Under the pieces are notes generated by a model that was not told the DNA's origin, did not search any database, and worked only from the letters and a program-made list of their open reading frames with translations. Below are positions 1,650-60,266 of a DNA stretch of 64,000 nucleotides, piece by piece. Location of the stretch: contig JBBDRP010000002.1 of assembly GCA_040905385.1 (NCBI GenBank), positions 322,937 through 386,936 of the forward strand, in the 5' to 3' direction. A program made the position numbers and the translations under genes. The stretch comes from Minisyncoccota bacterium (GTDB taxonomy: Bacteria; Patescibacteriota; Minisyncoccia; Phycocordibacterales; SW-6-46-9). How positions within the stretch are numbered: position 1 is the first letter of the stretch; every line of letters starts with the position of its first letter.

Positions 1650-4600
1650 ATGGAACAAAAAGTTTTCTCTAAGCACCAAAAACCACTTGTAGATTATCCA
1701 AACTTTGTGCGCGACCAGCTTGAATCCTTTCAGTGGATAGTAGATGAAGGACTCGAAGAACTGTTTGCAGAATTCTCACCAATCGATGATCACTCAAATG
1801 AAAAGTTTTCATTTGAGTTTAAAAAGATCGAGCTTGGCGAACCGCAGGTAACCCCAGAGTACGCTCGTCAGAACGAGATGACTTACGCGGCACCACTGCG
1901 GGCCACAATAAAACTGACAAATAAATCTATCGGCTCTGAAAAGGAGCAGGAGATTTTTATGGCGGACTTTCCTCTAATGACCAACTATGGTTCCTTTATT
2001 GTGAACGGTATTGAGCGAGTGGTGGTTCCACAGTTGATCCGATCCTTTGGAGTGTTGTTTGTGACTAACGAAAAGCGTGGCAATGAGTATTTTGGAGCCA
2101 AGATCATTCCGGCTCGTGGGGCCTGGATTGAGATTGAGAGTGATCACGAGAATGTTGTCAGTGTTCGTATTGACCGCAAGCGCAAGCTGCCGGTTACAAC
2201 GCTGTTGCGGGTACTCGGAGCTGCAACGACTGAGGAAATAGAAGAGCTCTTTGCAGATGATGAAGAGGCGATGCGGTACATTAAGGCTACGCTGGCCGAT
2301 GATTCATCCGAGAATGAAGAGGATGCCTATGTAGCGGTGTACAAAAAGCTTCGCGAGGGGGACATTGTGTCCTACTCAAACGCCAAGGACTACATCGACT
2401 CACTCTTTACCGATGAGCGTTATGACATCTCTGATGTGGGTCGCTACCGCTTCAATGATCGTTTTGATAAGGGAATGGATGAAGAGTCGCTCTCTAAGCA
2501 GGTGATTGATCTTGATGACGTCGTCACAATTGTTAAGCACATTGCGAAGCTTAATAATGATGATGAAGCCAAGGCTGATGACATCGACCACCTCGGAAGT
2601 CGTCGTGTACGCTTTGTGGGAGAGACCCTTAAAAAGAAGATTCGTGTTGCGATGACACAGATGAAGCGTAACATTCAGGATCGCATGAGTACGGTTGATA
2701 TTGACACGACGCTGCCGGTTAAATTTCTCAGTCCGCGGCCACTACAGGCGCGACTAAAGGAATTTTACGCTACCAACCAGCTGTCGCAGTTTATGCATCA
2801 GGACAACATTCTGAACGAGATAGAACACCTGCGTACGCTGTCTGCTATGGGGCCAGGAGGTCTGAACCGTCAGCGAGCTGGATTCGAGGTTCGTGACGTT
2901 CACCCGTCTCACTACGGACGTGTCTGTCCGATTCATACACCTGAGGGTGCTAACATTGGGCTTATTCTGCGCCTGGCTACCCGAGCCCGCGTAAATCACT
3001 TCGGAATGGTGGAGACACCGTACGCGGTGGTTAAAAACGGTAAGGTGACCGACGAGATAAAGTATTTAAACGCGTTTGAGGAGGAGAAGTGTAACATTGC
3101 TCACGCTGCCATGGAGCGAGACAAGAAAGGAAAGATTGTTGACGAACGAGTGGAAGTTCGTCACCAAGGAAATCCACTGGAGGTGCTACGCGAGGAGGTG
3201 GACTACATTGACGTTGCGGCTGACCAGGCCTTCTCGATTGCGACCTCGATGATTCCGTTCTTGAATCACAACGATGCCAACCGTGCTCTGATGGGATCTA
3301 ATATGCAGAAACAAGCTACGCCGTGTATTGTGCCGGAGCGACCATTGGTCGCAACTGGTATTGAGGGACCGGCGGCTCGTAATACGGGGCGGGTTGTGTT
3401 GGCTCAGGCTGATGGTGAGGTTACTGAGGTTGACGGCAAGCACATTACGGTGAAGCGAAAGAATCCAAAGCGCGGTGAACCAAAGCAGGATGAGTATCCA
3501 TTATCTATATATGAAAGAACCAATGCTTTTACGGCCTTTCACCAGCGTCCGACCGTTAATCTCGGCGACAAGGTAAAGAAGGGTGATGTGCTGGCGGATA
3601 CGTCATCCAGTGAGGGTGGTCAGATGGCACTAGGGAAAAACGCTAAGGTTGCGTTTATGTCTTGGTACGGTGCCAACTACGAGGACGCGATTGTGATCTC
3701 GGAAAAGCTCGTGAAGGAAGGAACCTTCACCAGTGCACATATGGAGAAGTTTGATGTCAACGTACGTGATACGAAGCTAGGTCCTGAGGTAACCACGCAT
3801 GATATTCCGAACGTTTCCGAGGAAAAGCTATCCAATTTAGACGAAGATGGAATCATTCGCATCGGTGCCGAGGTTGAACCGGGCGATATTCTGGTTGGAA
3901 AGATTACCCCGAAGGGTGAGTCACAGCTGACACCAGAGGAGCGACTTCTCCGTTCTATTTTTGGAGAGAAGGCACGTGATGTAAAGGACTCATCCAAGCG
4001 AATGGAACAGGGCAAGAAAGGACGTGTTGTAGGAGTGAAGGTTTTCTCCCGCGAGAATGGTGACGAGCTAGAGAGTGGTGTGCTGAAGCGTGTCGTGGTT
4101 GAAGTTGCACAGCTACGGCCACTTCGGGTTGGTGACAAGCTGGCTGGACGGCACGGAAACAAGGGAGTCATCTCGATGATTCTTCCGGAAGAGGAGATGC
4201 CATACGACGCTAATGGTGAGCCGGTAGAAATTCTGCTGACACCACTCGGTGTACCAAGCCGTATGAACCTCGGACAGATTTTCGAGCTTCACCTCGGACT
4301 GGCCGCGAAGGATCTTGGTTACCAGGCGATTGTTCCGCCATTTATGGGAGCCACCAGCGAAGAGATTCGTAATGAGCTTGAGAAGGCTGGTTACCCACGC
4401 AGTGGAAAGGTAAAACTGTACGACGGCCGGACTGGAGACGCCTTTGAGCAGGATGTTGCAGTTGGGTATATGTATATTTTGAAGCTTCACCATATGGTGG
4501 AGGACAAGCTACACTCTCGCTCGATTGGTCCGTACTCACTGATTACACAGCAGCCACTGGGTGGTCGAGCACAGAATGGTGGTCAACGATTTGGAGAGAT

Positions 4601-4826
4601 GGAGGTCTGGGCACTCTTGGGCTATGGTGCAGCCTACACACTTCGGGAGGTGCTGACTATTAAGTCTGATGACATTCTTGGCCGCTCAAGTGCCTTTGAT
4701 GCCATCATCCAGGGTAAGCCGATCGAGCACATGAATACACCTGCCTCATTTAACGTACTGCTTAATAACCTACGCGCTCTGGCGCTGGATGTTGAGGTCA
4801 AGCTTGATAGTGAAGCCAAAGCTTAA
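1650..4826 (+). CDS. rpoB: DNA-directed RNA polymerase beta subunit
   Basis: 1058 aa. Conserved RpoB blocks (GSNMQ.QA.P, NYEDAIVIS, rif-cluster region). Confidence 0.97.
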   Translation: MEQKVFSKHQKPLVDYPNFVRDQLESFQWIVDEGLEELFAEFSPIDDHSNEKFSFEFKKIELGEPQVTPEYARQNEMTYAAPLRATIKLTNKSIGSEKEQEIFMADFPLMTNYGSFIVNGIERVVVPQLIRSFGVLFVTNEKRGNEYFGAKIIPARGAWIEIESDHENVVSVRIDRKRKLPVTTLLRVLGAATTEEIEELFADDEEAMRYIKATLADDSSENEEDAYVAVYKKLREGDIVSYSNAKDYIDSLFTDERYDISDVGRYRFNDRFDKGMDEESLSKQVIDLDDVVTIVKHIAKLNNDDEAKADDIDHLGSRRVRFVGETLKKKIRVAMTQMKRNIQDRMSTVDIDTTLPVKFLSPRPLQARLKEFYATNQLSQFMHQDNILNEIEHLRTLSAMGPGGLNRQRAGFEVRDVHPSHYGRVCPIHTPEGANIGLILRLATRARVNHFGMVETPYAVVKNGKVTDEIKYLNAFEEEKCNIAHAAMERDKKGKIVDERVEVRHQGNPLEVLREEVDYIDVAADQAFSIATSMIPFLNHNDANRALMGSNMQKQATPCIVPERPLVATGIEGPAARNTGRVVLAQADGEVTEVDGKHITVKRKNPKRGEPKQDEYPLSIYERTNAFTAFHQRPTVNLGDKVKKGDVLADTSSSEGGQMALGKNAKVAFMSWYGANYEDAIVISEKLVKEGTFTSAHMEKFDVNVRDTKLGPEVTTHDIPNVSEEKLSNLDEDGIIRIGAEVEPGDILVGKITPKGESQLTPEERLLRSIFGEKARDVKDSSKRMEQGKKGRVVGVKVFSRENGDELESGVLKRVVVEVAQLRPLRVGDKLAGRHGNKGVISMILPEEEMPYDANGEPVEILLTPLGVPSRMNLGQIFELHLGLAAKDLGYQAIVPPFMGATSEEIRNELEKAGYPRSGKVKLYDGRTGDAFEQDVAVGYMYILKLHHMVEDKLHSRSIGPYSLITQQPLGGRAQNGGQRFGEMEVWALLGYGAAYTLREVLTIKSDDILGRSSAFDAIIQGKPIEHMNTPASFNVLLNNLRALALDVEVKLDSEAKA

Positions 4827-4850
4827 GAAATTAAATTAATACATATTATT

Positions 4851-8525
<3,675 letters not shown>

Positions 8526-8565: not shown

Positions 8566-10314
8566 ATGGCCTCGGATGTAGAAACAATCAAAGAGCGCCT
8601 TGCCATCGAGGAAGTGGTGGGTTCATACGTTGAACTGAAGCAGTCAGGAAAGTATCTTACCGCCAAATCACCCTTCACAAATGAAAAGACGCCGTCGTTC
8701 TACGTCTCTCCGGACAAGGGACTGTTTCACTGCTTTTCAAGCGGTAAGGGAGGAGATGTCTTTACCTTTATCCAGGAGATGGAGGGCGTTGAGTTTCGGG
8801 AGGCATTGAAGCTCCTGGCAGACCGAGCTGGGGTGACGCTTTCTGGCGGTAGTGGTGATTCTGGTCGCAAGCAGCGTCTGCGCGACATCATGGCCGCGGC
8901 TCGAGATTTTTACGTAGCCCATCTCAAGCAGCAGAACGAGGCCAAGGAGTATCTGAAAAGTCGCGGTGTGACCGGAAAGACGGCCGCCACTTTTTCTCTG
9001 GGACAGGCTCCGGATGACTGGCGACAGCTGACTACACATCTGGAATCCGAGGGCTTCAAGACCGCCGACATTATTGAGGCTGGCCTTGCCAAGCAGCCCG
9101 ATGCGAATAAGTCGCCCTACGATCGCTTCCGTCACCGTCTGATGTTTCCGATGAATGATCCGGCCGGCCGGACGGTAGCCTTTTCTGGCCGTCGCCTGCG
9201 CGAAGAGGACAATGCCAAGTACATTAACTCGCCGGAGACACCACTGTTTCGTAAAAAGGAGGTTCTGTATGGATTCAATCAGGCCAAGGACGCACTACGC
9301 GATCAGGATGCCGCGATTCTGGTAGAGGGACAGCTTGATCTGGTACTGGCACACCAGGCTGGTTTCCAGAATGCCGTTGCTGTGTCTGGTACTGCTATTA
9401 CGAAAAAGCACTTGTCCCTTATCAGTCGGTTTACAGACAATCTTATCTTTGCGCTGGATACCGATCGGGCTGGCCGAGACGCAACGCTTAAGTCAGCTCG
9501 ATTAGCCCTGACTGAGAACATGAAGCCGAAGGTGGTGGATATGCCGACCGACAGCGACCCAGCTGATATCATTACTGGAGAAGGTAAGGAGGTATTTTCC
9601 AAGCTAGTAGCCGAAGCTCATGACGTGATCGATGCAGTGCTTGGGTGGGCAGAGGCTGAAACGGATACTCGAGAGGAGTATCTCGACATGGTCCAGCAGC
9701 AGGTGTTTCCGCTGCTGCGAAGTATTGAAAACAAAATAAATCAGGATCACTTTATTTCCCGTGTGGCTCAGATGTCCGATATTCGCGAAGAGACGTTACG
9801 TAATGAACTAGCAAAAACGATGTCAGAAAAACAGTCTTCACAATCAGGTATCCCTCAGGCTAAAGAGCAGTCGCCGCTGGCAGCTGCCAAGGAGAATGAC
9901 CGCCTGACTCCTGATGAGCAGAAGCACGAGATCCATAAGCAACTGCGAGCTTTCTGCGAGTGGCAGTCGCAGCAGAAGCAGTCGGTTGTAGATATCAATG
10001 AGACTAAAACCCGGATTGGTGAGATTGTAGCGTATGATATGAATGACGGCTTTGAAGACGTAGAGATTACTGAGGATCAGGTAATGGCGCTTGATATTGC
10101 CTACAATGAAGCTGCGGATAAGATTATCCGCCGTGACTTAGAAGAGCTGCTGCTTCATTTTGAGGCCCGAATTTTACAGGATACGTATGAACAGGCCAGC
10201 CGGCAGGTGAAGCGCGAAGAGGATAAGGAGAAGAAGAAGGAGCTTCTGGAGAAGTGTCAGCGCATCTCTCGGCGAATCCATGAGATACGCGAGACGGTAC
10301 GTGATCTTATATAG
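8566..10314 (+). CDS. dnaG: DNA primase with a degenerate N-terminal zinc-binding domain
   Basis: The NEKTPSF primase motif and TOPRIM region (EGQLDLV, DTDRAGR) are present. The CHC2 zinc ligands are mostly replaced (SPFTNEK...HCFSSG). Confidence 0.9.
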   Translation: MASDVETIKERLAIEEVVGSYVELKQSGKYLTAKSPFTNEKTPSFYVSPDKGLFHCFSSGKGGDVFTFIQEMEGVEFREALKLLADRAGVTLSGGSGDSGRKQRLRDIMAAARDFYVAHLKQQNEAKEYLKSRGVTGKTAATFSLGQAPDDWRQLTTHLESEGFKTADIIEAGLAKQPDANKSPYDRFRHRLMFPMNDPAGRTVAFSGRRLREEDNAKYINSPETPLFRKKEVLYGFNQAKDALRDQDAAILVEGQLDLVLAHQAGFQNAVAVSGTAITKKHLSLISRFTDNLIFALDTDRAGRDATLKSARLALTENMKPKVVDMPTDSDPADIITGEGKEVFSKLVAEAHDVIDAVLGWAEAETDTREEYLDMVQQQVFPLLRSIENKINQDHFISRVAQMSDIREETLRNELAKTMSEKQSSQSGIPQAKEQSPLAAAKENDRLTPDEQKHEIHKQLRAFCEWQSQQKQSVVDINETKTRIGEIVAYDMNDGFEDVEITEDQVMALDIAYNEAADKIIRRDLEELLLHFEARILQDTYEQASRQVKREEDKEKKKELLEKCQRISRRIHEIRETVRDLI

Positions 10315-10349: not shown

Positions 10350-11468
10350 ATGCCTCGATCAAAACCAAAAGAAGAAAATAGAGAGTTCGACCTCACTGAG
10401 GAAGAACGTCACGTGCAGGATAAGGTAAAAAACCTTACCTCTACCGGGCAGCAGCGTGGGTTTGTTACTCATGAACAGATACTTAAAAACTTTCCGTTCA
10501 TTGAGGATGACATTGACTTTCTTGAGGAGCTTTTAGATAAATTTGATAATGCCGACATCGACGTTCGCAAGGAGGCTGGTCTTTTTGATATTGAGGATAA
10601 CAGTGACAAGAATGTCTACCGACGTGGTAGTGCTGCTAGTTTTGATTCGGTGCAGCAGTACCTGAAGGAGATTGGAAAGTACAATCTGATTGATGCTCAG
10701 ATGGAGAAAGACCTGGCCAAGCGAATTCAGGCTGGTGATGATGAGGCAAAGAATATTCTGGCCCGAGCGAATCTGCGGCTGGTGGTATCGATTGCCAAAC
10801 GCTACGCCTCGCGTTCTTCTAATCTGTCGCTTCTGGATCTGATTCAGGAAGGGAACATCGGTCTCTTCAAGGCCGTAGATAAGTTTGACTGGACACGTGG
10901 TTTCAAGTTCTCGACGTACGCTACCTGGTGGATTCGCCAGGCAATCACGCGAGCCTTGGCAGATCAGTCACGGACAATTCGTATTCCGGTACACATGGTG
11001 GAGACCATCTCCAAGTACAAGCGCATTACGCGCCAGCTTAGTCAGGACTTGGGCCGGGATCCTCTTCCGGAGGAGATTGCGGTGGAGATGGGGATCGAGC
11101 TGGAGAAGGTGCTGCAGATTCAGAAGATTCGCCAGAATACCGTATCACTCGAGACACCGGTTGGTGACGAGGGTGATGACCGCTCCACATTCGGTGACTT
11201 TATTCCCGATGAGGAGCTGGATGATCCCGACAAGGAGACGTCACACCGCATTCTTTCCGAGCAGCTTGAGGAGGTGCTGAGTGAACTGACAGATAAAGAA
11301 CGACGTATTCTCGAGCTACGTAGTGGATTGATCGGTGGTGTCAGCCATACGCTGGAAGAGGTAGGGAAGGAGTTTGATGTCACCCGTGAACGTATTCGTC
11401 AGATTGAGGCCAAGGCGCACGAGAAGATTCGCCAGAATGAGAAGGCGCCGCGGCTTGAAAACTACTAA
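10350..11468 (+). CDS. rpoD: Primary RNA polymerase sigma factor (sigma-70 family)
   Basis: Region 2 ([39 protein letters not shown]) and region 4 HTH ([20 protein letters not shown]). Confidence 0.93.
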
Positions 11469-15720: not shown

Positions 15721-15750
15721 AAGATCTGCAAGTCTTCTTCAATAACAAAA

Positions 15751-15773
15751 AACACCACGTCTAACGTGGTGTT
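15751..15773 (+). terminator. Terminator hairpin AACACCACG-tctaa-CGTGGTGTT. Member of a conserved hairpin family.
   Basis: 9-bp perfect stem immediately after the helicase stop. A weaker second hairpin lies at 15818-15832. Confidence 0.5.
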
Positions 15774-15849
15774 TCGCTTCTTAGATATTGGTTTCAAACG
15801 GTTAGATAAGCTCATTGCCACGTCAGACGTGGTGCTGAGCGGCTTTCTT

Positions 15850-30820: not shown

Positions 30821-30826
30821 CAAAAA

Positions 30827-30857
30827 ACCACCACGTCCGACGTGGTGGTTTTATTTA
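30827..30857. terminator. Bidirectional terminator ACCACCACG-tccga-CGTGGTGGT flanked by an A-run and a T-run. Conserved hairpin family.
   Basis: Lies between convergent genes. Confidence 0.6.
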
Positions 30858-36189: not shown

Positions 36190-36226
36190 AACGAAGGGTT
36201 CGAATCCAGTCCGCTCGCCTCATAAA
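36190..36226 (+). pseudogene. tRNA-like fragment: an inverted 18-nt duplicate of the tRNA-Asn T-arm/acceptor 3' half (GGTTCGAATCCAGTCCGC). Probable pseudo-tRNA or att remnant.
   Basis: Perfect 18-nt match to 36267-36284 in the opposite orientation. No complete cloverleaf could be built. Nested hairpins lie upstream at 36137-36195. Confidence 0.45.
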
Positions 36227-36262
36227 AAAGCGGCCCTGACGGACGGCTTTCTATCTATTCGG

Positions 36263-36334
36263 CTCCGCGGACTGGATTCGAACCAGTAACATCCTCCTTA
36301 ACAGGGAGGCGCTCTACCGTTGAGCTACCGCGGA
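36263..36334 (-). tRNA. tRNA-Asn (anticodon GUU); CCA not encoded
   Basis: Manual fold: acceptor TCCGCGG/CCGCGGA, D-arm GCTC..GAGC, anticodon loop CTGTTAA, T-arm ACTGG-TTCGAAT-CCAGT. Confidence 0.85.
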
Positions 36335-44951: not shown

Positions 44952-46211
44952 ATGCATATGCGGCAATCACAGCTTTTCTCTAAAACCAGAAAGAACGCAC
45001 CAGCTGATGAGGTGGCCAAGAATGCCCAGCTTCTGATTCAGGCTGGCTTTATTCACAAGGAGATGGCCGGTGTTTATGCGTATCTACCACTTGGTCTGCG
45101 GGTCCGTAATAAAATTGAGGAAATAATTCGTGAGGAGATGAATGCTGTCGGCGGTCAGGAGGTGGAGCTCACCGCCCTTCAGCGGGAGGAGCTCTGGCAG
45201 CGCACGGATCGCTGGAGTGATGAGTCAATCGATGTCTGGTTCAAGACCAAGCTGAAGAATGATACCGAGGTCGGTCTGGCTACGACCCATGAGGAGCCGC
45301 TTACCGAGCTTTTGACCCAGCATATCAACTCCTACCGAGATATGCCGCTAGCCGTCTATCAGTTCCAGACCAAGTTTCGCAATGAGCTACGCTCGAAAAG
45401 CGGCATCATGCGTGGCCGGGAATTTCTTATGAAGGATCTGTACTCTTTTTGTCGTACACAGGATGAGCATGATGATTTTTATGCTGAAATGAAGTCTGCC
45501 TACGAACGGGTCTTCAGGCGCGTTGGAATTGGTGAAGACACTTTTTATACCTACGCCGATGGTGGAAGCTTCTCTGATTACTCTCATGAGTTTCAGACGG
45601 TCTCTGATGCCGGTGAGGATACAATCTATATCGATGATGACAGCGGAATCGCTATTAATAAAGAGATGCTGAACGAGAGTACGCTGAAGGAGCTTGATGT
45701 TGAAAGGGAGGATCTGCGTGAGGCTCGTGCTATCGAGGTGGGAAATATCTTTCCGCTGGGGACGAAGTTTTCCGATGCTCTGGGATTGGTGTTTAAGAAC
45801 GAAGACGGTGAGGAAAAGCCGGTGATTATGGGATCCTATGGTATCGGCGTCGGACGACTAATGGGAACGATTGTTGAGATTATGGCTGCTGAAGATGGTT
45901 TTATCTGGCCAGAGAACATTGCACCGTTTCGGGTACATCTCCTGGCACTCGGTGGTAGTGATGATGTCCGCCAGGCAGCTGATGGGGCCTACGAAGCCTT
46001 GCAATCTTCCGGTATCGAGGTTCTGTATGATGACCGCGACGCGAGTCCGGGCGAGAAATTTGGCGATAGTGATCTGATTGGTATTCCGACACAGATCGTT
46101 ATCGGAAATCAGACGATTAACAAGGATGGGGTCGAGGTGACGAATCGATTAGATAAAGACAGTACTTCAGAAATTTTACCCCTTTCGGAGGTCATAAACA
46201 GTCTTTCCTAA
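44952..46211 (+). CDS. proS: Prolyl-tRNA synthetase, bacterial-type N-terminus, short form apparently lacking the INS editing domain
   Basis: N-terminal MRQSQLFSKTRK..AGFIHK..YAYLPLGLRV matches bacterial ProRS. Only 419 aa. Confidence 0.8.
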   Translation: MHMRQSQLFSKTRKNAPADEVAKNAQLLIQAGFIHKEMAGVYAYLPLGLRVRNKIEEIIREEMNAVGGQEVELTALQREELWQRTDRWSDESIDVWFKTKLKNDTEVGLATTHEEPLTELLTQHINSYRDMPLAVYQFQTKFRNELRSKSGIMRGREFLMKDLYSFCRTQDEHDDFYAEMKSAYERVFRRVGIGEDTFYTYADGGSFSDYSHEFQTVSDAGEDTIYIDDDSGIAINKEMLNESTLKELDVEREDLREARAIEVGNIFPLGTKFSDALGLVFKNEDGEEKPVIMGSYGIGVGRLMGTIVEIMAAEDGFIWPENIAPFRVHLLALGGSDDVRQAADGAYEALQSSGIEVLYDDRDASPGEKFGDSDLIGIPTQIVIGNQTINKDGVEVTNRLDKDSTSEILPLSEVINSLS

Positions 46212-55429: not shown

Positions 55430-55750
55430 ATGAGCCAGTATATTTACTCTCGCATCTACCGAAAGCGTATTTTTATAACCCTTATAACCCTATTTGTTTT
55501 ATCCGCGGGGTTATACGGTTTTTTCCTGCAGCAGACCATCAGTCATGTTGTTGAACGGACAACTTTAGATAATAATATCGCCTCGCTTCATTCACAGATT
55601 GGTGATGCAGAGTATAATTATGGTAGCTCAATTAGTTCGATTACGATGGACAAGGCCTTGGCTCTTGGATTTACACCAGTTGATTCAACGACCTATGTAA
55701 CTCGTGCTGATCGCGGCACCTTTGTAAGTCTCAATGTTTCTGGCGAATAA
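55430..55750 (+). CDS. ftsL: Cell division protein FtsL-like (single-TM)
   Basis: Small bitopic protein between rsmH and ftsI. Confidence 0.5.
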   Translation: MSQYIYSRIYRKRIFITLITLFVLSAGLYGFFLQQTISHVVERTTLDNNIASLHSQIGDAEYNYGSSISSITMDKALALGFTPVDSTTYVTRADRGTFVSLNVSGE

Positions 55751-57449
55751 CTCCATACGGATAAAGATTATAGCGGGTATCGCAGTACTACTAGCGCTTT
55801 CACTGGTGGTTCGTTTGTATTTTGTACAGATTGTTAACGGAGCCGAGTATAAAGAGATCGGACAGGCGCAGTACGTCCAGTCCGATAATCAGCTGTACAA
55901 TCGTGGGTCAATATCCCTGACAGCTAAGGATGGCACCAGCCGGGTAGCGGCGTTGCAGGAATCTGGTTACATACTGGCAGTGAATGCACAGCTGATTGAT
56001 AACGTGGCGATGGTATATACAGCATTATCTAAAATAATTGATATTAACGAAAATTATTTTATGACAGCTGTGGCGGATGTGGATGATCCATACATCGAAA
56101 TCGCTAGTGAGATACCGGAAGAAGCAGCTATTGAAATTCAGGAGGCGCAGATCAGAGGTGTTGGTGTTTATCCGGAAAAATGGCGTCGGTATCCGTACGG
56201 ACCGCTAGCGGCACATGTACTGGGGTATGCCGGGTATGCGGATAAAGGAGATCAGCGGGTTGGAACCTATGGCATTGAGAAGCAGTACGACAGCATTTTG
56301 GATCATGATGGTGGTGGTTCGTACCTGAGTTTTCCGCAGGTTTTTTCTGGTATCGGTAGTGCACTGACCGGCAGTACGATCAGTCGGGATGGTAGTGTCT
56401 TACTAACGCTTGAACCGGATGTACAATCCTATCTCGAGCGACTGTTGTCTGATCTGGCCGAGGAGTGGAACGCACCGCAGACAATGGGAATTGTGATGGA
56501 TCCAAATACCGGAGCTATCCGCGCCATGGCGGTTCATCCAACCTTTAATCCCAATACGTATAACGAAGAGGAGAACGTATCAGTCTTCACTAACCCGACG
56601 GTTCAGAGTCGCTACGAGATGGGATCAATTATCAAGGCCCTTACCATGGCGGCCGGACTGGATGCTGGCGTGGTGACGCCGGAGACAACATATGTAGATA
56701 AGGGAAGCATAACACTAAATAATGCCACAATTTATAATTATGATGGCAAGGCCCGTGGTCGAGTGAACATGCAGGAGGTACTTAATCAGTCGCTGAACAC
56801 CGGGGCCAGCTACGTGGCACTGGAGCTAGGGCATGAACGCATGCGTGACTACTTTTACCGCTTTGGTTTAGGAGAAAAGACTGGGATCAAGCTTCCAGGT
56901 GAAATCGCTGGCGCCGTGTCAAACCTAGAGGTAGACAGAGACCTGGCGTATGCAACAGCTTCCTTTGGGCAGGGAATCGCCTTGACTCCAGTTGCTACCA
57001 TTCGAGCTCTGGCGACGTTAGCGAATGGCGGACGGCTGGTGCAGCCGCATGTAGTTGACTCAATCGACTGGCGACTTGGTGGGTCGAGCGATGTCTCACC
57101 AGAAGTAGGGGATCGCGTGCTCAAGCAGGAGACATCCGAGGAGATATCGCGTATGCTGGTAAAGACCACTGACGAGGCGTTGGCTGGTGGTGACTACTCG
57201 CGTGAGCGTCACAGTGTCGCGGCAAAGACCGGTACGGCTCAGATTGCTCAGCCGGGCGGCGGCTATTACGACGATATCTTTAACCACACATTTTTTGGGT
57301 ATTTTCCGGCCTATGATCCGGAGTTCATTGTGTTCTTGATGGTGCGTGAGCCGCAGGGAGTGCGCTACGCCTCCCAGACCCTGACTGATCCCTTTTTTAA
57401 CATGGTTGATTTTTTGATAAATTATTATAATATAGCTCCAGACAGATAA
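55734..57449 (+). CDS. ftsI: Penicillin-binding protein (FtsI/PBP3-type transpeptidase)
   Basis: SIIKA (SxxK), SLN and KTGTA motifs. dcw position. Confidence 0.85.
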   Translation: MFLANNSIRIKIIAGIAVLLALSLVVRLYFVQIVNGAEYKEIGQAQYVQSDNQLYNRGSISLTAKDGTSRVAALQESGYILAVNAQLIDNVAMVYTALSKIIDINENYFMTAVADVDDPYIEIASEIPEEAAIEIQEAQIRGVGVYPEKWRRYPYGPLAAHVLGYAGYADKGDQRVGTYGIEKQYDSILDHDGGGSYLSFPQVFSGIGSALTGSTISRDGSVLLTLEPDVQSYLERLLSDLAEEWNAPQTMGIVMDPNTGAIRAMAVHPTFNPNTYNEEENVSVFTNPTVQSRYEMGSIIKALTMAAGLDAGVVTPETTYVDKGSITLNNATIYNYDGKARGRVNMQEVLNQSLNTGASYVALELGHERMRDYFYRFGLGEKTGIKLPGEIAGAVSNLEVDRDLAYATASFGQGIALTPVATIRALATLANGGRLVQPHVVDSIDWRLGGSSDVSPEVGDRVLKQETSEEISRMLVKTTDEALAGGDYSRERHSVAAKTGTAQIAQPGGGYYDDIFNHTFFGYFPAYDPEFIVFLMVREPQGVRYASQTLTDPFFNMVDFLINYYNIAPDR

Positions 57450-57542
57450 TATATGATTCTCTATATACTACTTACATTTGCGGTCATATCGCTTGGTTGG
57501 TTGTACCACTGGATGTGACACACCTTACATAGCGTGTCACTA

Positions 57543-57611
57543 ACCACGTTTGACGCGGTGTCACTACCACGACGACTGGTGATTTTGTAAAGCTACATAA
57601 GTACAGGGTGA
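57543..57611. repeat. Left flank of imperfect direct repeats bracketing the GIY-YIG gene (CACGTTTGACG..GACTGGTGA..TAAAGCTAC..GGTGAG)
   Basis: Aligns with 57905-57983. The right copy additionally carries the tRNA-Glu 3'-end-like CCCCGAC segment. Confidence 0.5.
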
Positions 57612-57613
57612 GA

Positions 57614-57892
57614 TTACATTTCATCTTCAAGATTTGAAAATGTATTTTTCAGTATAGATCTTAATTGTTTTCTTCCATATCCACTCTTAAGATATTTTTC
57701 TCTAGATTTAGCATCTTTTTTAGAAGTGAATGCTTCGTAATATATTAATTTAATAGGTAATCTATCTTTGGTTGATAGACAGGTGCCAAACTTATGCTCA
57801 CTTATTCTTCTACTTAAATCTTTTGTATAGCCAATATATAAACCACCATCCTTCTTGCTGTGAAGAATGTAAACATAGAACATTAAGTTCAT
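57614..57892 (-). CDS. GIY-YIG nuclease family protein (small standalone, UPF0213/YhbQ-like), low-GC gene
   Basis: YVYILHSKKDGGLYIGYTKDLSRRISEH matches GIY-YIG. AT-rich ORF flanked by direct repeats. Confidence 0.75.
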   Translation of the reverse strand: MNLMFYVYILHSKKDGGLYIGYTKDLSRRISEHKFGTCLSTKDRLPIKLIYYEAFTSKKDAKSREKYLKSGYGRKQLRSILKNTFSNLEDEM

Positions 57893-57904
57893 TATAGTAT
57901 ACGG

Positions 57905-57983
57905 TGAGCACGTCGAACGTGCTACACCGCGATGACTGGTGACCCCGACCCTCCTTCGCTAAAGCTACGGTAGGGCACGGCGA
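57905..57983. repeat. Right flank of the direct repeats bracketing the GIY-YIG gene. Contains TGGTGACCCCGAC, the tRNA-Glu 3'-end sequence (57937-57949).
   Basis: Read directly from the sequence. Confidence 0.5.
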
Positions 57984-58137
57984 GATTTCCTTACGATAGA
58001 TTGACTGACGTCAATCTTCTCCAGGTCGGCTCTCGTGATGCTCGCCTGCTACGCAACTCGCATAACACTGCGAGCTTCAAATCTGTCGCGAGTGCAGAAA
58101 TGCACTCGCTCGGAGTCAAAATTCACTTCGTTCATTT

Positions 58138-58152
58138 GTGACCCCGACGAGA
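58138..58152. repeat. Second duplicate of the tRNA-Glu 3' end (GTGACCCCGACGAGA). att-like repeat.
   Basis: 15/15 identity to 58325-58339. The surrounding ~250 bp is hairpin-rich, with a degenerate T-arm-like GAGCTTCAAATCTG. Confidence 0.5.
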
Positions 58153-58322
58153 ACATTCACATCGTCACTCTGTTCCTCTTTCGAAACCACTCGGTTTCGA
58201 AGGCTTCCTCCACGAGAGAAACTACAGTTTCTCTCGACCTCTCTTAGTGTTCAAATCTCTCCCAGTTATCTACTAAAAGAGACACAAATTTAGATCAACA
58301 TTCAGTTAATTATTAGACTATT

Positions 58323-58400
58323 TGGTGACCCCGACGAGATTTGAACTCGTGTTACTAGGATGAGAACCTAGCGTCCTGGACCGGGCTAGACGACGGGGCC
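58323..58400 (-). tRNA. tRNA-Glu (anticodon CUC) with encoded CCA
   Basis: Manual fold: acceptor GGCCCCG/CGGGGTC (one G-U pair), the TCGTCTAG...CCAGGAC D-region typical of tRNA-Glu, anticodon loop TTCTCAT, T-arm ACGAG-TTCAAAT-CTCGT. Confidence 0.8.
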
Positions 58401-58530
58401 GAGTATCTAATTTTACTACAAACTTGTTCTTAGAGAGATTTATAGGGCCAATAAGCAACGTTAAATATAATACAGACTTTTTGCTTCATTCGCAATGTAT
58501 TAACCCATATCCTTACGAGCGAATGGTATT

Positions 58531-58887
58531 ATGGTAATAGTAAAACAACCTAATCAAAATATTGCGATGACAAATCTTATACTGGGAATAATAATTGGTG
58601 CAATAATCACGACTTTTACGCTTTCTGCAGCAGATCGTGCGCGTGATCGGGTGGTGGGTGCGTGCAAGTTCGTGCTTGGACAAAATGAAGATAAGGAGAA
58701 GAATAAGCAGCAGATTTTAGAATTTTTAGCAGCTAATGACGGCCAGGCAAGCAACAGCGAAATCAGCGAGCACCTTGGTGTCAGCAGCCGCACCGTCGTC
58801 CGCTATATGGATGAGCTAGAGGCCACTAGGGAGGTAACCCAGGTCGGCGAGACCGGTCGCGGCGTCACCTACCGCCTCACCCGCTAA
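58531..58887 (+). CDS. Hypothetical membrane-anchored winged-helix DNA-binding protein
   Basis: N-terminal TM (LILGIIIGAIITTF). C-terminal HTH-like ISEHLGVSSRTVVRYMDELE..GRGVTYRL. Confidence 0.5.
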   Translation: MVIVKQPNQNIAMTNLILGIIIGAIITTFTLSAADRARDRVVGACKFVLGQNEDKEKNKQQILEFLAANDGQASNSEISEHLGVSSRTVVRYMDELEATREVTQVGETGRGVTYRLTR

Positions 58888-58937
58888 ACACGACAACTGG
58901 CTGTCGTGTTTAGTGATTACTTGAAATAAGGAGCCAA

Positions 58938-60266
58938 TCAGCTAGTTAGAATATCGACAGCCAGGGCGGCCGACCAAGAGAAGTGCTCGGCACCAATACC
59001 TTCAAGCGTTTCTGGGTTGTAGTATTCCCAAATTCCGTGATTTTCTAATAGATTGATAAGATTGTTACGTAAGCCGCTGGCGTACTCGTCAGCGCCAGCA
59101 TTTTCTAGTCCATCCAGCATCAGCCAGTTGGTATTGATCCAGACAGGCCCGCGCCAGTAACGGTCAGGAGTAAATTTATTGCTGAATAGACTTGTTGATG
59201 GGAGTAGCGTTGCTCGGCAGCTTCCTTCACCACAAAATAGTTTTTCATCCAAGGTATCAAAAAGGTTTTCAACCTCCTCCTCATTCATATCGCCACCAAT
59301 GAGTGGGGACATGGCGGCAATAGTATTCTCTTTTAGTAATTTACCACTCAGAAGATCGCGGTCGTAAAAAAGTCCGTTCGACCTGTCCTGACATCGAGTG
59401 TTAATATTTTCTCGAAAGCGCTGCTGCCAGGTGGTTATCTCTTCAGTATTTTCATTTAGTGTATCGGCAATGCGCAGCAGGTAGCCGTTGGCGAGGTGCA
59501 GAACCGAGGAGAAGAATACATCCTCTACCTGGAACGGATGCACTTGGCGCAGTTTTTCATCATCATATCCTGCCTCTCGCATCTTTTCGGCGAGGTATAC
59601 GTACGTATCGTAATTAGCATTGCTGGGCCGGAAGCGGGCATCAACAAAGCCGGTATCACGTCGCTCATACAACGCTTTTTCCTTTATAGAGATATTTTTC
59701 AGTGGCGTATCCCAGCGGGGTGAGTTGTCCATGCCTGACTCCCACGGATGGTAGATGGTTATCAGCCCGGTGTTGCCCTGGTCACGCTGGCGGTAGAGAT
59801 ACGTATGCAGACTCAGAAGCTTTGGGTACATCAGCTCCAGCCAGTCTAGAGCTAGCTCAGAATCCGTTTTTTCCAGTGTCTCAAATACCTTCCAGACCGA
59901 GATAGAATGAATCGGCGGCTGGGTCATCCCGGACGTCTCCATTCCTTCTGGCGCTTGATCAGAGGTATCCTGCACCTGCCAGAAGGTTTCATTAGGGAAG
60001 TAGTTATCTGAAGGTATGTGAAAGATGACATGGGGAAGAAAACCATTTTTCCACTGACCGGAAAATAAGGTCTCGATTTCCGTCATCGCTCTCTGTATAT
60101 CGATATGTCGCCAGCCAATAGCGGAAAACCCAGAGTCCCAGTTCCACTGGTAGGGATACACATCTGCGGCCGGCTTAGTGAAGCCCGACCCTTCGTCTAC
60201 CTGAACCCAGTTATCCTGAAGAATTTTTACGGCCTCCTCCTGAAGTTTATTACTATCGGTGGTCAT
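58938..60266 (-). CDS. (alpha/alpha)6-barrel glycoside hydrolase, GH63/GDE_C-like (glucosylglycerate or mannosylglycerate hydrolase-like)
   Basis: YPYQWNWDSGF and overall acidic-Trp-rich pattern. 442 aa. Confidence 0.45.
   Translation of the reverse strand: MTTDSNKLQEEAVKILQDNWVQVDEGSGFTKPAADVYPYQWNWDSGFSAIGWRHIDIQRAMTEIETLFSGQWKNGFLPHVIFHIPSDNYFPNETFWQVQDTSDQAPEGMETSGMTQPPIHSISVWKVFETLEKTDSELALDWLELMYPKLLSLHTYLYRQRDQGNTGLITIYHPWESGMDNSPRWDTPLKNISIKEKALYERRDTGFVDARFRPSNANYDTYVYLAEKMREAGYDDEKLRQVHPFQVEDVFFSSVLHLANGYLLRIADTLNENTEEITTWQQRFRENINTRCQDRSNGLFYDRDLLSGKLLKENTIAAMSPLIGGDMNEEEVENLFDTLDEKLFCGEGSCRATLLPSTSLFSNKFTPDRYWRGPVWINTNWLMLDGLENAGADEYASGLRNNLINLLENHGIWEYYNPETLEGIGAEHFSWSAALAVDILTS

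Follow-up and report, generated by a model that had tools for sequence, protein, structure and literature searches.

The closest described systems that bring small nucleases or inserted DNA to tRNA genes are of two kinds. SegB of phages T4 and T6 is a free-standing GIY-YIG homing endonuclease encoded in a tRNA gene cluster (PMC2330249); a 2026 paper ties it to tRNAs of many isotypes, inside whose genes it cuts at RAWTSGAAC, driving tandem amplification (PMC13096335), and it promotes the copying of itself together with flanking DNA (PMC2330249; PMC13096335). The cut site appears to us to be the reverse complement of the T-loop sequence. Tyrosine-integrase islands mapped by Islander use the 3' ends of tRNA and transfer-messenger RNA (tmRNA) genes as targets, regenerate the gene and leave a direct, displaced copy of its 3' fragment (PMC4383910). 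Here we describe a locus in a 64,000-nucleotide stretch of contig JBBDRP010000002.1 from a Minisyncoccota bacterium (the whole stretch is called the window), where an intact tRNA-Glu(CTC) gene is followed, on the same strand, by displaced copies of its own 3' end and by a cassette made of a hairpin-bearing leader and a gene for a very small GIY-YIG protein. Cassettes of the same kind recur behind tRNA and tmRNA genes in genomes of the Candidate Phyla Radiation (CPR), of which the host genome belongs to the Paceibacteria/Parcubacteria part. In the literature searched we found no description of a link between small GIY-YIG genes and CPR tRNA genes; GIY-YIG proteins were noted in non-intron inserts by a study of insertions in CPR rRNA, which considered them outside homing (PMC11270868).

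The cassette in the window, roughly 330 bp long, lies on the minus strand and consists of a 44-nucleotide leader (57893-57936), recognized by its similarity to the leaders of other cassettes, and a stand-alone gene of 89 amino acids (57614-57883), supported by Pfam, by homologs and by an AlphaFold2 model. In the leader, the first hairpin (HP1) is degenerate and the second (HP2, AGCACGTTCGACGTGCT, 57907-57923) is intact, followed by an AT-rich, TATAAT-like stretch that runs to the ATG; we could not place a promoter convincingly in this leader. The open reading frame (ORF) has a GC content of 28%, versus 47% for the window and 50% for the neighboring ftsI gene. Directly against the 5' side of the leader stands an exact 13-nucleotide copy of the tRNA 3' end (copy B, GTCGGGGTCACCA, 57937-57949), and farther up an exact 15-nucleotide copy (copy A, TCTCGTCGGGGTCAC, 58138-58152), the first base of which is the last base of the T-loop. 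Both copies are in the orientation of the tRNA-Glu(CTC) gene itself (58323-58400, minus strand), which is intact, includes an encoded CCA, was called by ARAGORN, scores 57.6 bits against Rfam RF00005 and has the T-arm ACGAG-TTCAAAT-CTCGT. We estimate the chance of an exact 13-15-mer recurring in 64 kb at about 1e-3 to 1e-4.

Repeat searches and folding delimit two spacer units without an ORF between these elements. The unit next to the tRNA, S1 (170 nucleotides, 58153-58322, minus strand), carries an 11-nucleotide inverted copy of the tRNA T-loop/T-stem at 58249-58259 and hairpins at 58213-58236 and 58180-58201. The next unit, S2 (188 nucleotides, 57950-58137, minus strand), carries an inverted T-loop-like motif at 58075-58085 and hairpins at 58088-58109 and 57999-58016, and terminates in an end motif, GTAGCTTTAGCGAAGGAGG (57950-57968). 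The 430 nucleotides from the tRNA to the ORF are strongly structured, with a fold z-score of -7.3 versus shuffled sequence. Neither unit has a copy elsewhere in the window, and among 167 loci only the short end motif is similar. In Rfam 15, tRNA, tmRNA and rRNA were the only meaningful matches (window positions 56500-59500 by E-value, the whole 64 kb at gathering thresholds, and 28 related loci), and no ribozyme, group I intron or other Rfam motif covers the leader or spacers in the window or in those 28 loci.

On the other side of the ORF, the direct repeats (families D1 and D2) reveal a decayed second junction and leader without an ORF (57500-57611, minus strand). About 110 nucleotides 3' of the ORF form an imperfect repeat (64-76% identity) of the junction region 5' of it, each copy consisting of end motif, tRNA end and leader start, with the upstream copy intact and the downstream copy decayed. 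The latter holds a remnant of the end motif (GTAGCTTTAC, 57587-57596), a tRNA-end remnant with a leader start (TCACCAGTC, 57574-57582), an HP1-like stretch (CACCGCGTCAAACGTGGTTAG, 57540-57560) and a hairpin at 57515-57540. The HP1-like stretch is 95% identical over 21 nucleotides to HP1 of cassettes in two other loci (L002 and L106; L-numbers denote loci from metagenomes and relatives). Since the downstream repeat continues into HP1-like sequence, it points to a second cassette that has lost its ORF. In our reading, the window contains a single intact cassette, along with a decayed second leader and a pair of ORF-less spacer units, both of which end in a displaced copy of the tRNA 3' end. These copies become shorter with distance from the tRNA, from 15 to 13 nucleotides and then to a 6-nucleotide remnant, which fits serial insertion with the newest event closest to the tRNA.

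An earlier note on this stretch, made from the sequence alone, had reported the tRNA-Glu on the minus strand, the recurrence of its 3' end and a hairpin-rich non-coding patch, and the tRNA calls, the exact matches and the fold z-score bear it out in all of these. It had also proposed a low-GC GIY-YIG ORF at 57614-57892 bracketed by direct repeats. Domain and GC content were correct, and the start is revised: homologs begin with MFYVY or MYYVY, so that translation likely starts at 57883, giving 89 rather than 92 amino acids, with the ATG at 57892 as the alternative. The bracketing repeats are real, if imperfect, and are better read as the junction of the decayed cassette leader.

The protein matches the Pfam GIY-YIG family (PF01541, E-value 7.5e-16). 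Across an alignment of 36 sequences, Y5, Y16, R26, H30 and E62 are invariant or nearly so, and the window protein retains all family-invariant residues. Its AlphaFold2 model is a single domain with a GIY-YIG-like fold and no extra module (predicted local distance difference test, pLDDT, 93.6), and no additional DNA-binding domain, as found in Seg-like homing endonucleases, was seen in the window protein. By sequence, the nearest proteins of solved structure are BH0048 and EF2693, both of UPF0213 (solved UPF0213 structures 1zg2, E-value 1.5e-11, and 1ywl, 3e-10), then T4 endonuclease II, Slx1 and UvrC; Foldseek likewise ranked 1zg2 (BH0048) first and the nuclease domains of Slx1 next, with I-TevI and UvrC weaker. 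All NCBIfam models stayed below cutoff (TIGR01453, 22 versus 56 bits), and PHROGs gave only weak matches. An anti-phage defense system was considered and set aside for want of a convincing PADLOC match, the window protein having none at all and two homologs only marginal ones. There are hundreds of homologs, and every source name among the matches listed is from Patescibacteria; a profile search retrieved 5,152 representatives of 50% identity clusters at E<=1e-10. Viral contigs yielded only seven distant homologs, so phages are not an obvious vector.

With a family alignment, we gathered a set of 80 metagenome loci that hold 84 GIY-YIG ORFs. An intact tRNA gene on the same strand ends 24-139 nucleotides upstream of 46 of the 84 ORFs, and a tmRNA gene occupies the same position for a further 12; about 70% of homologs thus lie 24-150 nucleotides downstream of an intact same-strand tRNA or tmRNA gene. 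Six more ORFs have a tRNA 151-450 nucleotides upstream, and in at least three of these (L098, L107 and L160) a tRNA 3' fragment intervenes. For most of the remainder the contig is too short or a tRNA-like 3' fragment is present. With a background of 0.06 tRNA per kb in CPR loci, we estimate the enrichment at more than 100-fold. The associated tRNAs cover more than 15 amino-acid types, and some loci carry several copies of the cassette. The earlier note had taken the nuclease gene for the surviving cargo of eroded, integrase-borne islands, a view that the family does not support, as leader and ORF are themselves the recurrent unit, which abuts tRNA or tmRNA 3' ends in most of the 80 independent loci. 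Nor does it behave as a conserved chromosomal YhbQ ortholog with identical flanks everywhere, the scenario that the note had set against its own proposal.

The limits of the unit can be read from pairs of cassettes with 78-89% identical proteins that stand behind different tRNAs (Asp/Trp, Glu/Val, Tyr/Ala, Glu/Ser and Glu/Leu). Four of these pairs are homologous at the DNA level from the tRNA 3' end onward and the Glu/Leu pair from HP2 onward; in all five, homology ends at about the stop codon. These limits define a unit of leader plus ORF, about 330-400 bp long and without terminal inverted repeats. In 29 of 56 cases, a GIY-YIG gene and its closest GIY-YIG relative share the type of tRNA, where 5.6 would be expected. 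The cassette is also polymorphic for presence and absence. In a Levybacteria locus (L097) it lies behind tRNA-Leu(TAA) and is followed by a 15-nucleotide copy of the tRNA end, while two relatives (L186, with 91.5% nucleotide identity upstream, and L187, with 79.6%) have the same tRNA-Leu without a cassette, and colinearity among the three breaks exactly at the tRNA 3' end.

The leader starts directly at the tRNA discriminator/CC. Its common form comprises two or three hairpins built on the core CGT-NNN-ACG (for example HP1, CCGCGTCAAACGCGG and CCGAGTCAAACTCGG; HP2, GTCGCGTTTGACGCGAC and GCACGTCAGACGTGC; HP3, GAAACGTCTGACGTTTC), and a second type has two longer hairpins with AT-rich tips. Around 83 ORFs we counted 142 such hairpins in upstream versus 4 in downstream windows, against a background of 0.025 per 250 nucleotides. 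With 94 unique instances anchored only on GTNNNAC, pairing at stem positions 1-4 reaches 89-94%, and each position uses at least four pair types; judged by this covariation, the hairpins are real stems, formed in RNA or in single-stranded DNA. The window leader is 93% identical over 28-29 nucleotides to tRNA-Glu-associated leaders in L029, L090, L091 and L092. In one subfamily HP3 is translated, and the N-terminal 'M-x-ETSDVS' extension of many database proteins (for example P0044 and P0074) arises because HP3 (GAAACGTCTGACGTTTC) is read as protein, which corrects the annotation of these entries.

Displaced tRNA ends occur on both sides of cassettes in the family. Past the stop codon, direct copies of 10-18 nucleotides of the tRNA end lie at a distance of 15-109 nucleotides in L093, L097, L120 and L137 (4 of 62 loci, versus 0.4% under the null), and L093, L097 and L137 have tight direct repeats 15-24 nucleotides past the stop. 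The layout of the window, with an intact tRNA, a spacer and a tRNA 3' end flush with the leader, is found again in L029, L098 (with two spacer units) and L160, where every displaced copy agrees with the host tRNA of its own locus. Nine of 12 displaced copies begin inside the T-loop. In L107, L143 and L005, the tRNA 3' fragment before the leader matches none of the adjacent tRNAs and so has apparently travelled with the cassette. Spacers resembling S1 are not confined to cassette-bearing loci: behind the tRNA-Glu(CTC) genes of L011, L021, L029 and L070, as in S1, the T-loop recurs inverted at +47 to +67 and the tRNA end in direct orientation at +105 to +170, and L049 shows just the inverted copy; in four of these five loci the tRNA has no GIY-YIG gene beside it. 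Units of the S1 and S2 type may be non-autonomous inserts or scars of repair.

For these observations, the explanation that we favor, with somewhat more confidence than doubt, is homing-like spread driven by the predicted nuclease, which would break the DNA of tRNA genes near the T-loop or 3' end. On this reading, the interval between ftsI and tRNA-Glu(CTC) is a hotspot for insertions behind the tRNA gene, at its 3' end, and the intact cassette is one member of a very large Patescibacteria family that combines an Slx1/UPF0213-like GIY-YIG protein of 85-95 amino acids with a hairpin leader. After a break at or near the T-loop or 3' end, repair would copy the cassette in from an occupied copy, comparable to the homing of phage SegB. 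Allelic repair would leave flush junctions; ectopic repair would displace the 3' piece of the recipient's tRNA behind the insert and so create direct repeats starting in the T-loop. Serial events at one tRNA may have produced, from oldest to newest, the decayed leader by ftsI, the intact cassette, S2 and S1. The leader hairpins would most likely serve in expression, in insulation or as binding sites for the nuclease.

Several points weigh against homing-like spread. Cutting by a protein of 89 amino acids, and the position of the cut, are what we infer from the family and the displaced copies; with no DNA-binding domain in the protein, target specificity is unexplained. Direct repeats flank only four or five of 62 cassettes, and the mostly flush junctions with an intact tRNA would not be easily explained by a break in the T-loop followed by ectopic repair, those behind different tRNAs included. 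Hairpins on one side only fit a role in expression as well as one in mobility. No clean empty site with a matching downstream flank was recovered, and one homolog, P0038, has the same surroundings in all 10 places shown from the 24 contigs read, which indicates that this member is stable within a species and that turnover is not fast. Finally, S-type spacers at tRNA-Glu genes without a GIY-YIG gene mean that the duplications need no cassette in cis and could have another cause.

One such cause would be a tyrosine integrase, formerly in cis or still acting in trans with a crossover in the T-loop, so that the repeats, S1, S2 and the cassette would all be miniature or eroded elements and the GIY-YIG gene a passenger. 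The combination of an intact tRNA with direct displaced 3' fragments identical from the T-loop onward is the exact signature of integrase islands (Islander, PMC4383910), and the use of tmRNA genes besides tRNA genes, as well as the existence of S units with displaced ends and no GIY-YIG gene, agree with it. This part of the earlier note, a footprint of repeated integration, holds insofar as the tRNA-end repeats act as displaced 3' fragments from insertions at the tRNA 3' region. In line with the note's statement that no integrase remains, we found none among the four neighboring window ORFs scanned, nor among the called genes of L001-L007 and L169-L178. However, as little as about 350 bp lies between the repeats, the sole ORF there is always of the same nuclease family, thousands of units would not invariably contain a gene that is a mere passive passenger, and most cassettes lack a distal repeat, so that we consider an integrase origin unlikely.

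Less mobile still would be a resident host module, a vertically inherited gene expressed through tRNA or tmRNA units, with hairpins for processing, termination or translation control and with repeats arising from local tandem duplication or template switching. The restriction of hairpins to the leader, the pairing of the first hairpin with the N-C-C tail of the tRNA, the constant context of P0038 in the places shown and the correlation of GIY-YIG lineage with tRNA type all suit such a module, and the inverted T-arm copies behind both tRNA-Glu and tRNA-Asn in this genome suggest local template switching. We nevertheless judge it improbable, given the patchy occurrence of the cassette among close relatives, the 78-89% identical cassettes that stand at different tRNAs and whose homology does not extend beyond the cassette, an ORF of 28% GC in a genome of 47-50%, the multiple copies at some loci, and the fragments in L107, L143 and L005 that no neighboring tRNA matches. 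Spread through RNA, in which a leader-ORF transcript or a tRNA-leader-ORF co-transcript is copied into DNA by a reverse transcriptase acting in trans, would account for a left boundary flush with the mature tRNA 3' end, a right boundary at the stop codon and a leader that begins with CC, as in the CCA tail. We give it very little credence: no reverse transcriptase was seen in the loci examined, the displaced copies begin in the T-loop and not at the tRNA end, and there is no further sign of an RNA intermediate.

A broader and decidedly tentative proposal is that the cassettes form a new class of autonomous, integrase-free element of about 350 bp that targets tRNA and tmRNA genes. Its sole protein, of about 89 amino acids, would be an Slx1-like, structure-specific nuclease recognizing the T-arm/acceptor structure, perhaps as extruded DNA hairpins; the T-arm-like hairpins of the leader would provide self-regulation or immunity of occupied sites; several per cent of CPR tRNA genes would be occupied; and the arrays of tRNA ends and spacers would be by-products of repair. 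If homing-like spread is correct, the 3' flanks of CPR tRNA and tmRNA genes have been colonized by a selfish element that is among the smallest known to encode a protein, some 350 bp with a single-domain nuclease, and that would be a cellular counterpart of SegB, reaching the targets of integrase islands without a recombinase. An explanation would follow for many of the tRNA gene fragments, contig breaks and variable regions seen beside tRNA genes in CPR assemblies, a conserved hairpin motif absent from Rfam would be defined, and a very small structure-directed or tRNA-gene-directed nuclease would become available for biochemical study.

The junction at which the window cassette lies is itself old. 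The ftsI gene (55734-57449, plus strand), identified by Pfam and synteny as a penicillin-binding protein transpeptidase, is the last gene of the dcw cluster here and converges on the 3' flank of the tRNA, its stop at 57449 leaving a gap of 870 bp to tRNA-Glu(CTC). Even the closest FtsI among 185,579 species genomes shares just 55% identity. Among 80 relatives, tRNA-Glu(CTC) follows ftsI within 550 nucleotides in 11 and within 4 kb in about half; the junction is thus ancestral and the dcw cluster is not interrupted, as the earlier note had supposed it to be. What is peculiar to the window is the filling of the space between ftsI and tRNA-Glu, not the junction, and a GIY-YIG gene stands beside tRNA-Glu(CTC) in only about 3 of some 45 relatives that have this tRNA near ftsI. 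Exact-protein look-ups with ftsI and a helix-turn-helix (HTH) gene found a single other contig of the organism, of 4,670 bp in SRR27977661 (Logan L001/L168), and the search for strain variants by this route returned no empty site for this genome. That contig stops precisely at position 57968 of the window, where the end motif ahead of copy B starts, which hints at a branch in the assembly graph, that is, population heterogeneity or a repeat.

A number of further observations concern tRNA ends and their copies. In L029, a spacer unit of about 205 nucleotides occurs twice (10075-10290 and ~11110-11290) with one mismatch by eye, each copy bounded by GTAGGGTCAC; the two flank a GIY-YIG cassette and a 78-amino-acid ORF, and at its start the unit has the tRNA 3' end in inverted form, split by a 22-nucleotide hairpin. 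Past the GIY-YIG stop in L161 (2758-2930), tandem pieces of about 40 nucleotides hold the tRNA 3' part GTCTCCAATCCCGCAGCTGCGGGACGAATCCTCATGGGCCTGC, and this is another serial array of tRNA-end fragments. The end motif (AGCTTTAGCGAAGG; AGCTTTAGCGAAGGAGG-like) recurs in L029, L051, L072, L078, L091, L097 and L098; it precedes some displaced tRNA 3' ends, among them those of L029, L097 and L098, and also the 5' end of tRNA-Glu in L051 and L091, and it follows the GIY-YIG gene in L078. Elsewhere in the window, tRNA-Asn (36261-36334, minus strand) has a perfect 18-nucleotide inverted copy of its T-loop, T-stem and acceptor start 52 nucleotides downstream, the pair GGTTCGAATCCAGTCCGC lying at 36197-36214 on the plus and 36267-36284 on the minus strand. 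Inverted T-arm copies at +38 to +67 were found for 7 of 151 tRNAs, about 10 times the null, and both real tRNAs of the window are among them; no shuffle of the window gave two such matches. A further ARAGORN call, tRNA-Pro(CGG) at 45177-45258, is unsupported at the Rfam gathering threshold, reads like coding DNA and is probably a false positive.

Other side observations touch the cassette and its hairpins. In L002, a GIY-YIG cassette stands directly behind the tRNA-Ala of a ribosomal RNA operon (16S, tRNA-Ile, tRNA-Ala, 23S), and together with an HTH/SocA-Panacea gene, a 112-amino-acid ORF and an MS_channel gene it makes up a 2.7-kb insert before the 23S gene (3872-6670); a search for a distal repeat bounding this insert found only an unconvincing 10-mer. 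In L013 (~7447-7800, minus strand), a more distant GIY-YIG gene, at 37% identity, runs right up to the 5' end of tRNA-Glu(CTC) and is preceded by a duplicated tRNA 5' end, GGCCCCATCGT, a mirror image which suggests that another GIY-YIG lineage targets the 5' part of tRNA genes. Long hairpins that share the core CCACGT-NNN-ACGTGG with the cassette leader lie at window positions 15750-15774, 15818-15832 and 30824-30852, just past gene ends in terminator-like positions, and stems are extended at 4 of the window's 18 CGTNNNACG sites, versus about 0.3 expected by our own estimate; the leader hairpins may be part of a wider class of palindromes in this genome.

Among known proteins and elements, those of the UPF0213/YhbQ type (1zg2, 1ywl) resemble the CPR protein most closely in themselves, as single-domain GIY-YIG proteins of about 90-100 amino acids with the best matches in sequence and fold. 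They are at most about 30-40% identical to the CPR proteins, and neither a tRNA linkage nor a hairpin leader is reported for them in the literature searched. The association of a small nuclease gene with short, conserved palindromic hairpins recalls the repetitive extragenic palindromes and their associated transposases (REP/RAYT) and IS200/IS605 elements, but the CPR enzyme is of the GIY-YIG and not the HUH (Y1) type, and its position is fixed at tRNA 3' ends. An IS200/IS605 or REP-like model was rejected, as the hairpins are upstream only (142 versus 4) and not at both ends. An integron cassette and a type III toxin-antitoxin system were also considered as analogies and dropped: the contexts examined showed no integrase, the hairpins precede the ORF on its 5' side and do not follow it 3', and a tandem RNA repeat unit is absent.

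With integrase islands, the CPR loci have in common the 3' part of tRNA and tmRNA genes as target, a block of identity that starts in the T-loop, and arrays formed by serial insertion. An intact tRNA with a displaced direct 3' fragment is present in the window (copies A and B) and in L029, L093, L097, L098, L120 and L160. Unlike islands, however, the CPR unit is only about 330-400 bp long, has the nuclease as its sole gene, mostly lacks a distal repeat and has no integrase among the genes scanned. With Seg-like homing genes, it shares a GIY-YIG domain with residues of the catalytic type and an intergenic position by a conserved target with presence/absence polymorphism, while the extra DNA-binding domain by which such enzymes recognize a long specific target is missing.

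SegB itself is a protein of about 220 amino acids with a DNA-binding region. The CPR protein, in contrast, has 85-95 amino acids, consists of the catalytic domain only and resembles UPF0213 and Slx1 more than it does I-TevI. SegB belongs to phages, whereas the CPR family resides in cellular genomes and is rare in viral contigs, and its cassette is flush with the 3' end of a tRNA or tmRNA gene, on the same strand and with a conserved leader of several hairpins. Even so, SegB is the closest known analog: in both systems a GIY-YIG gene stands beside tRNA genes of many isotypes, and the displaced copies in CPR likewise begin in the T-loop.

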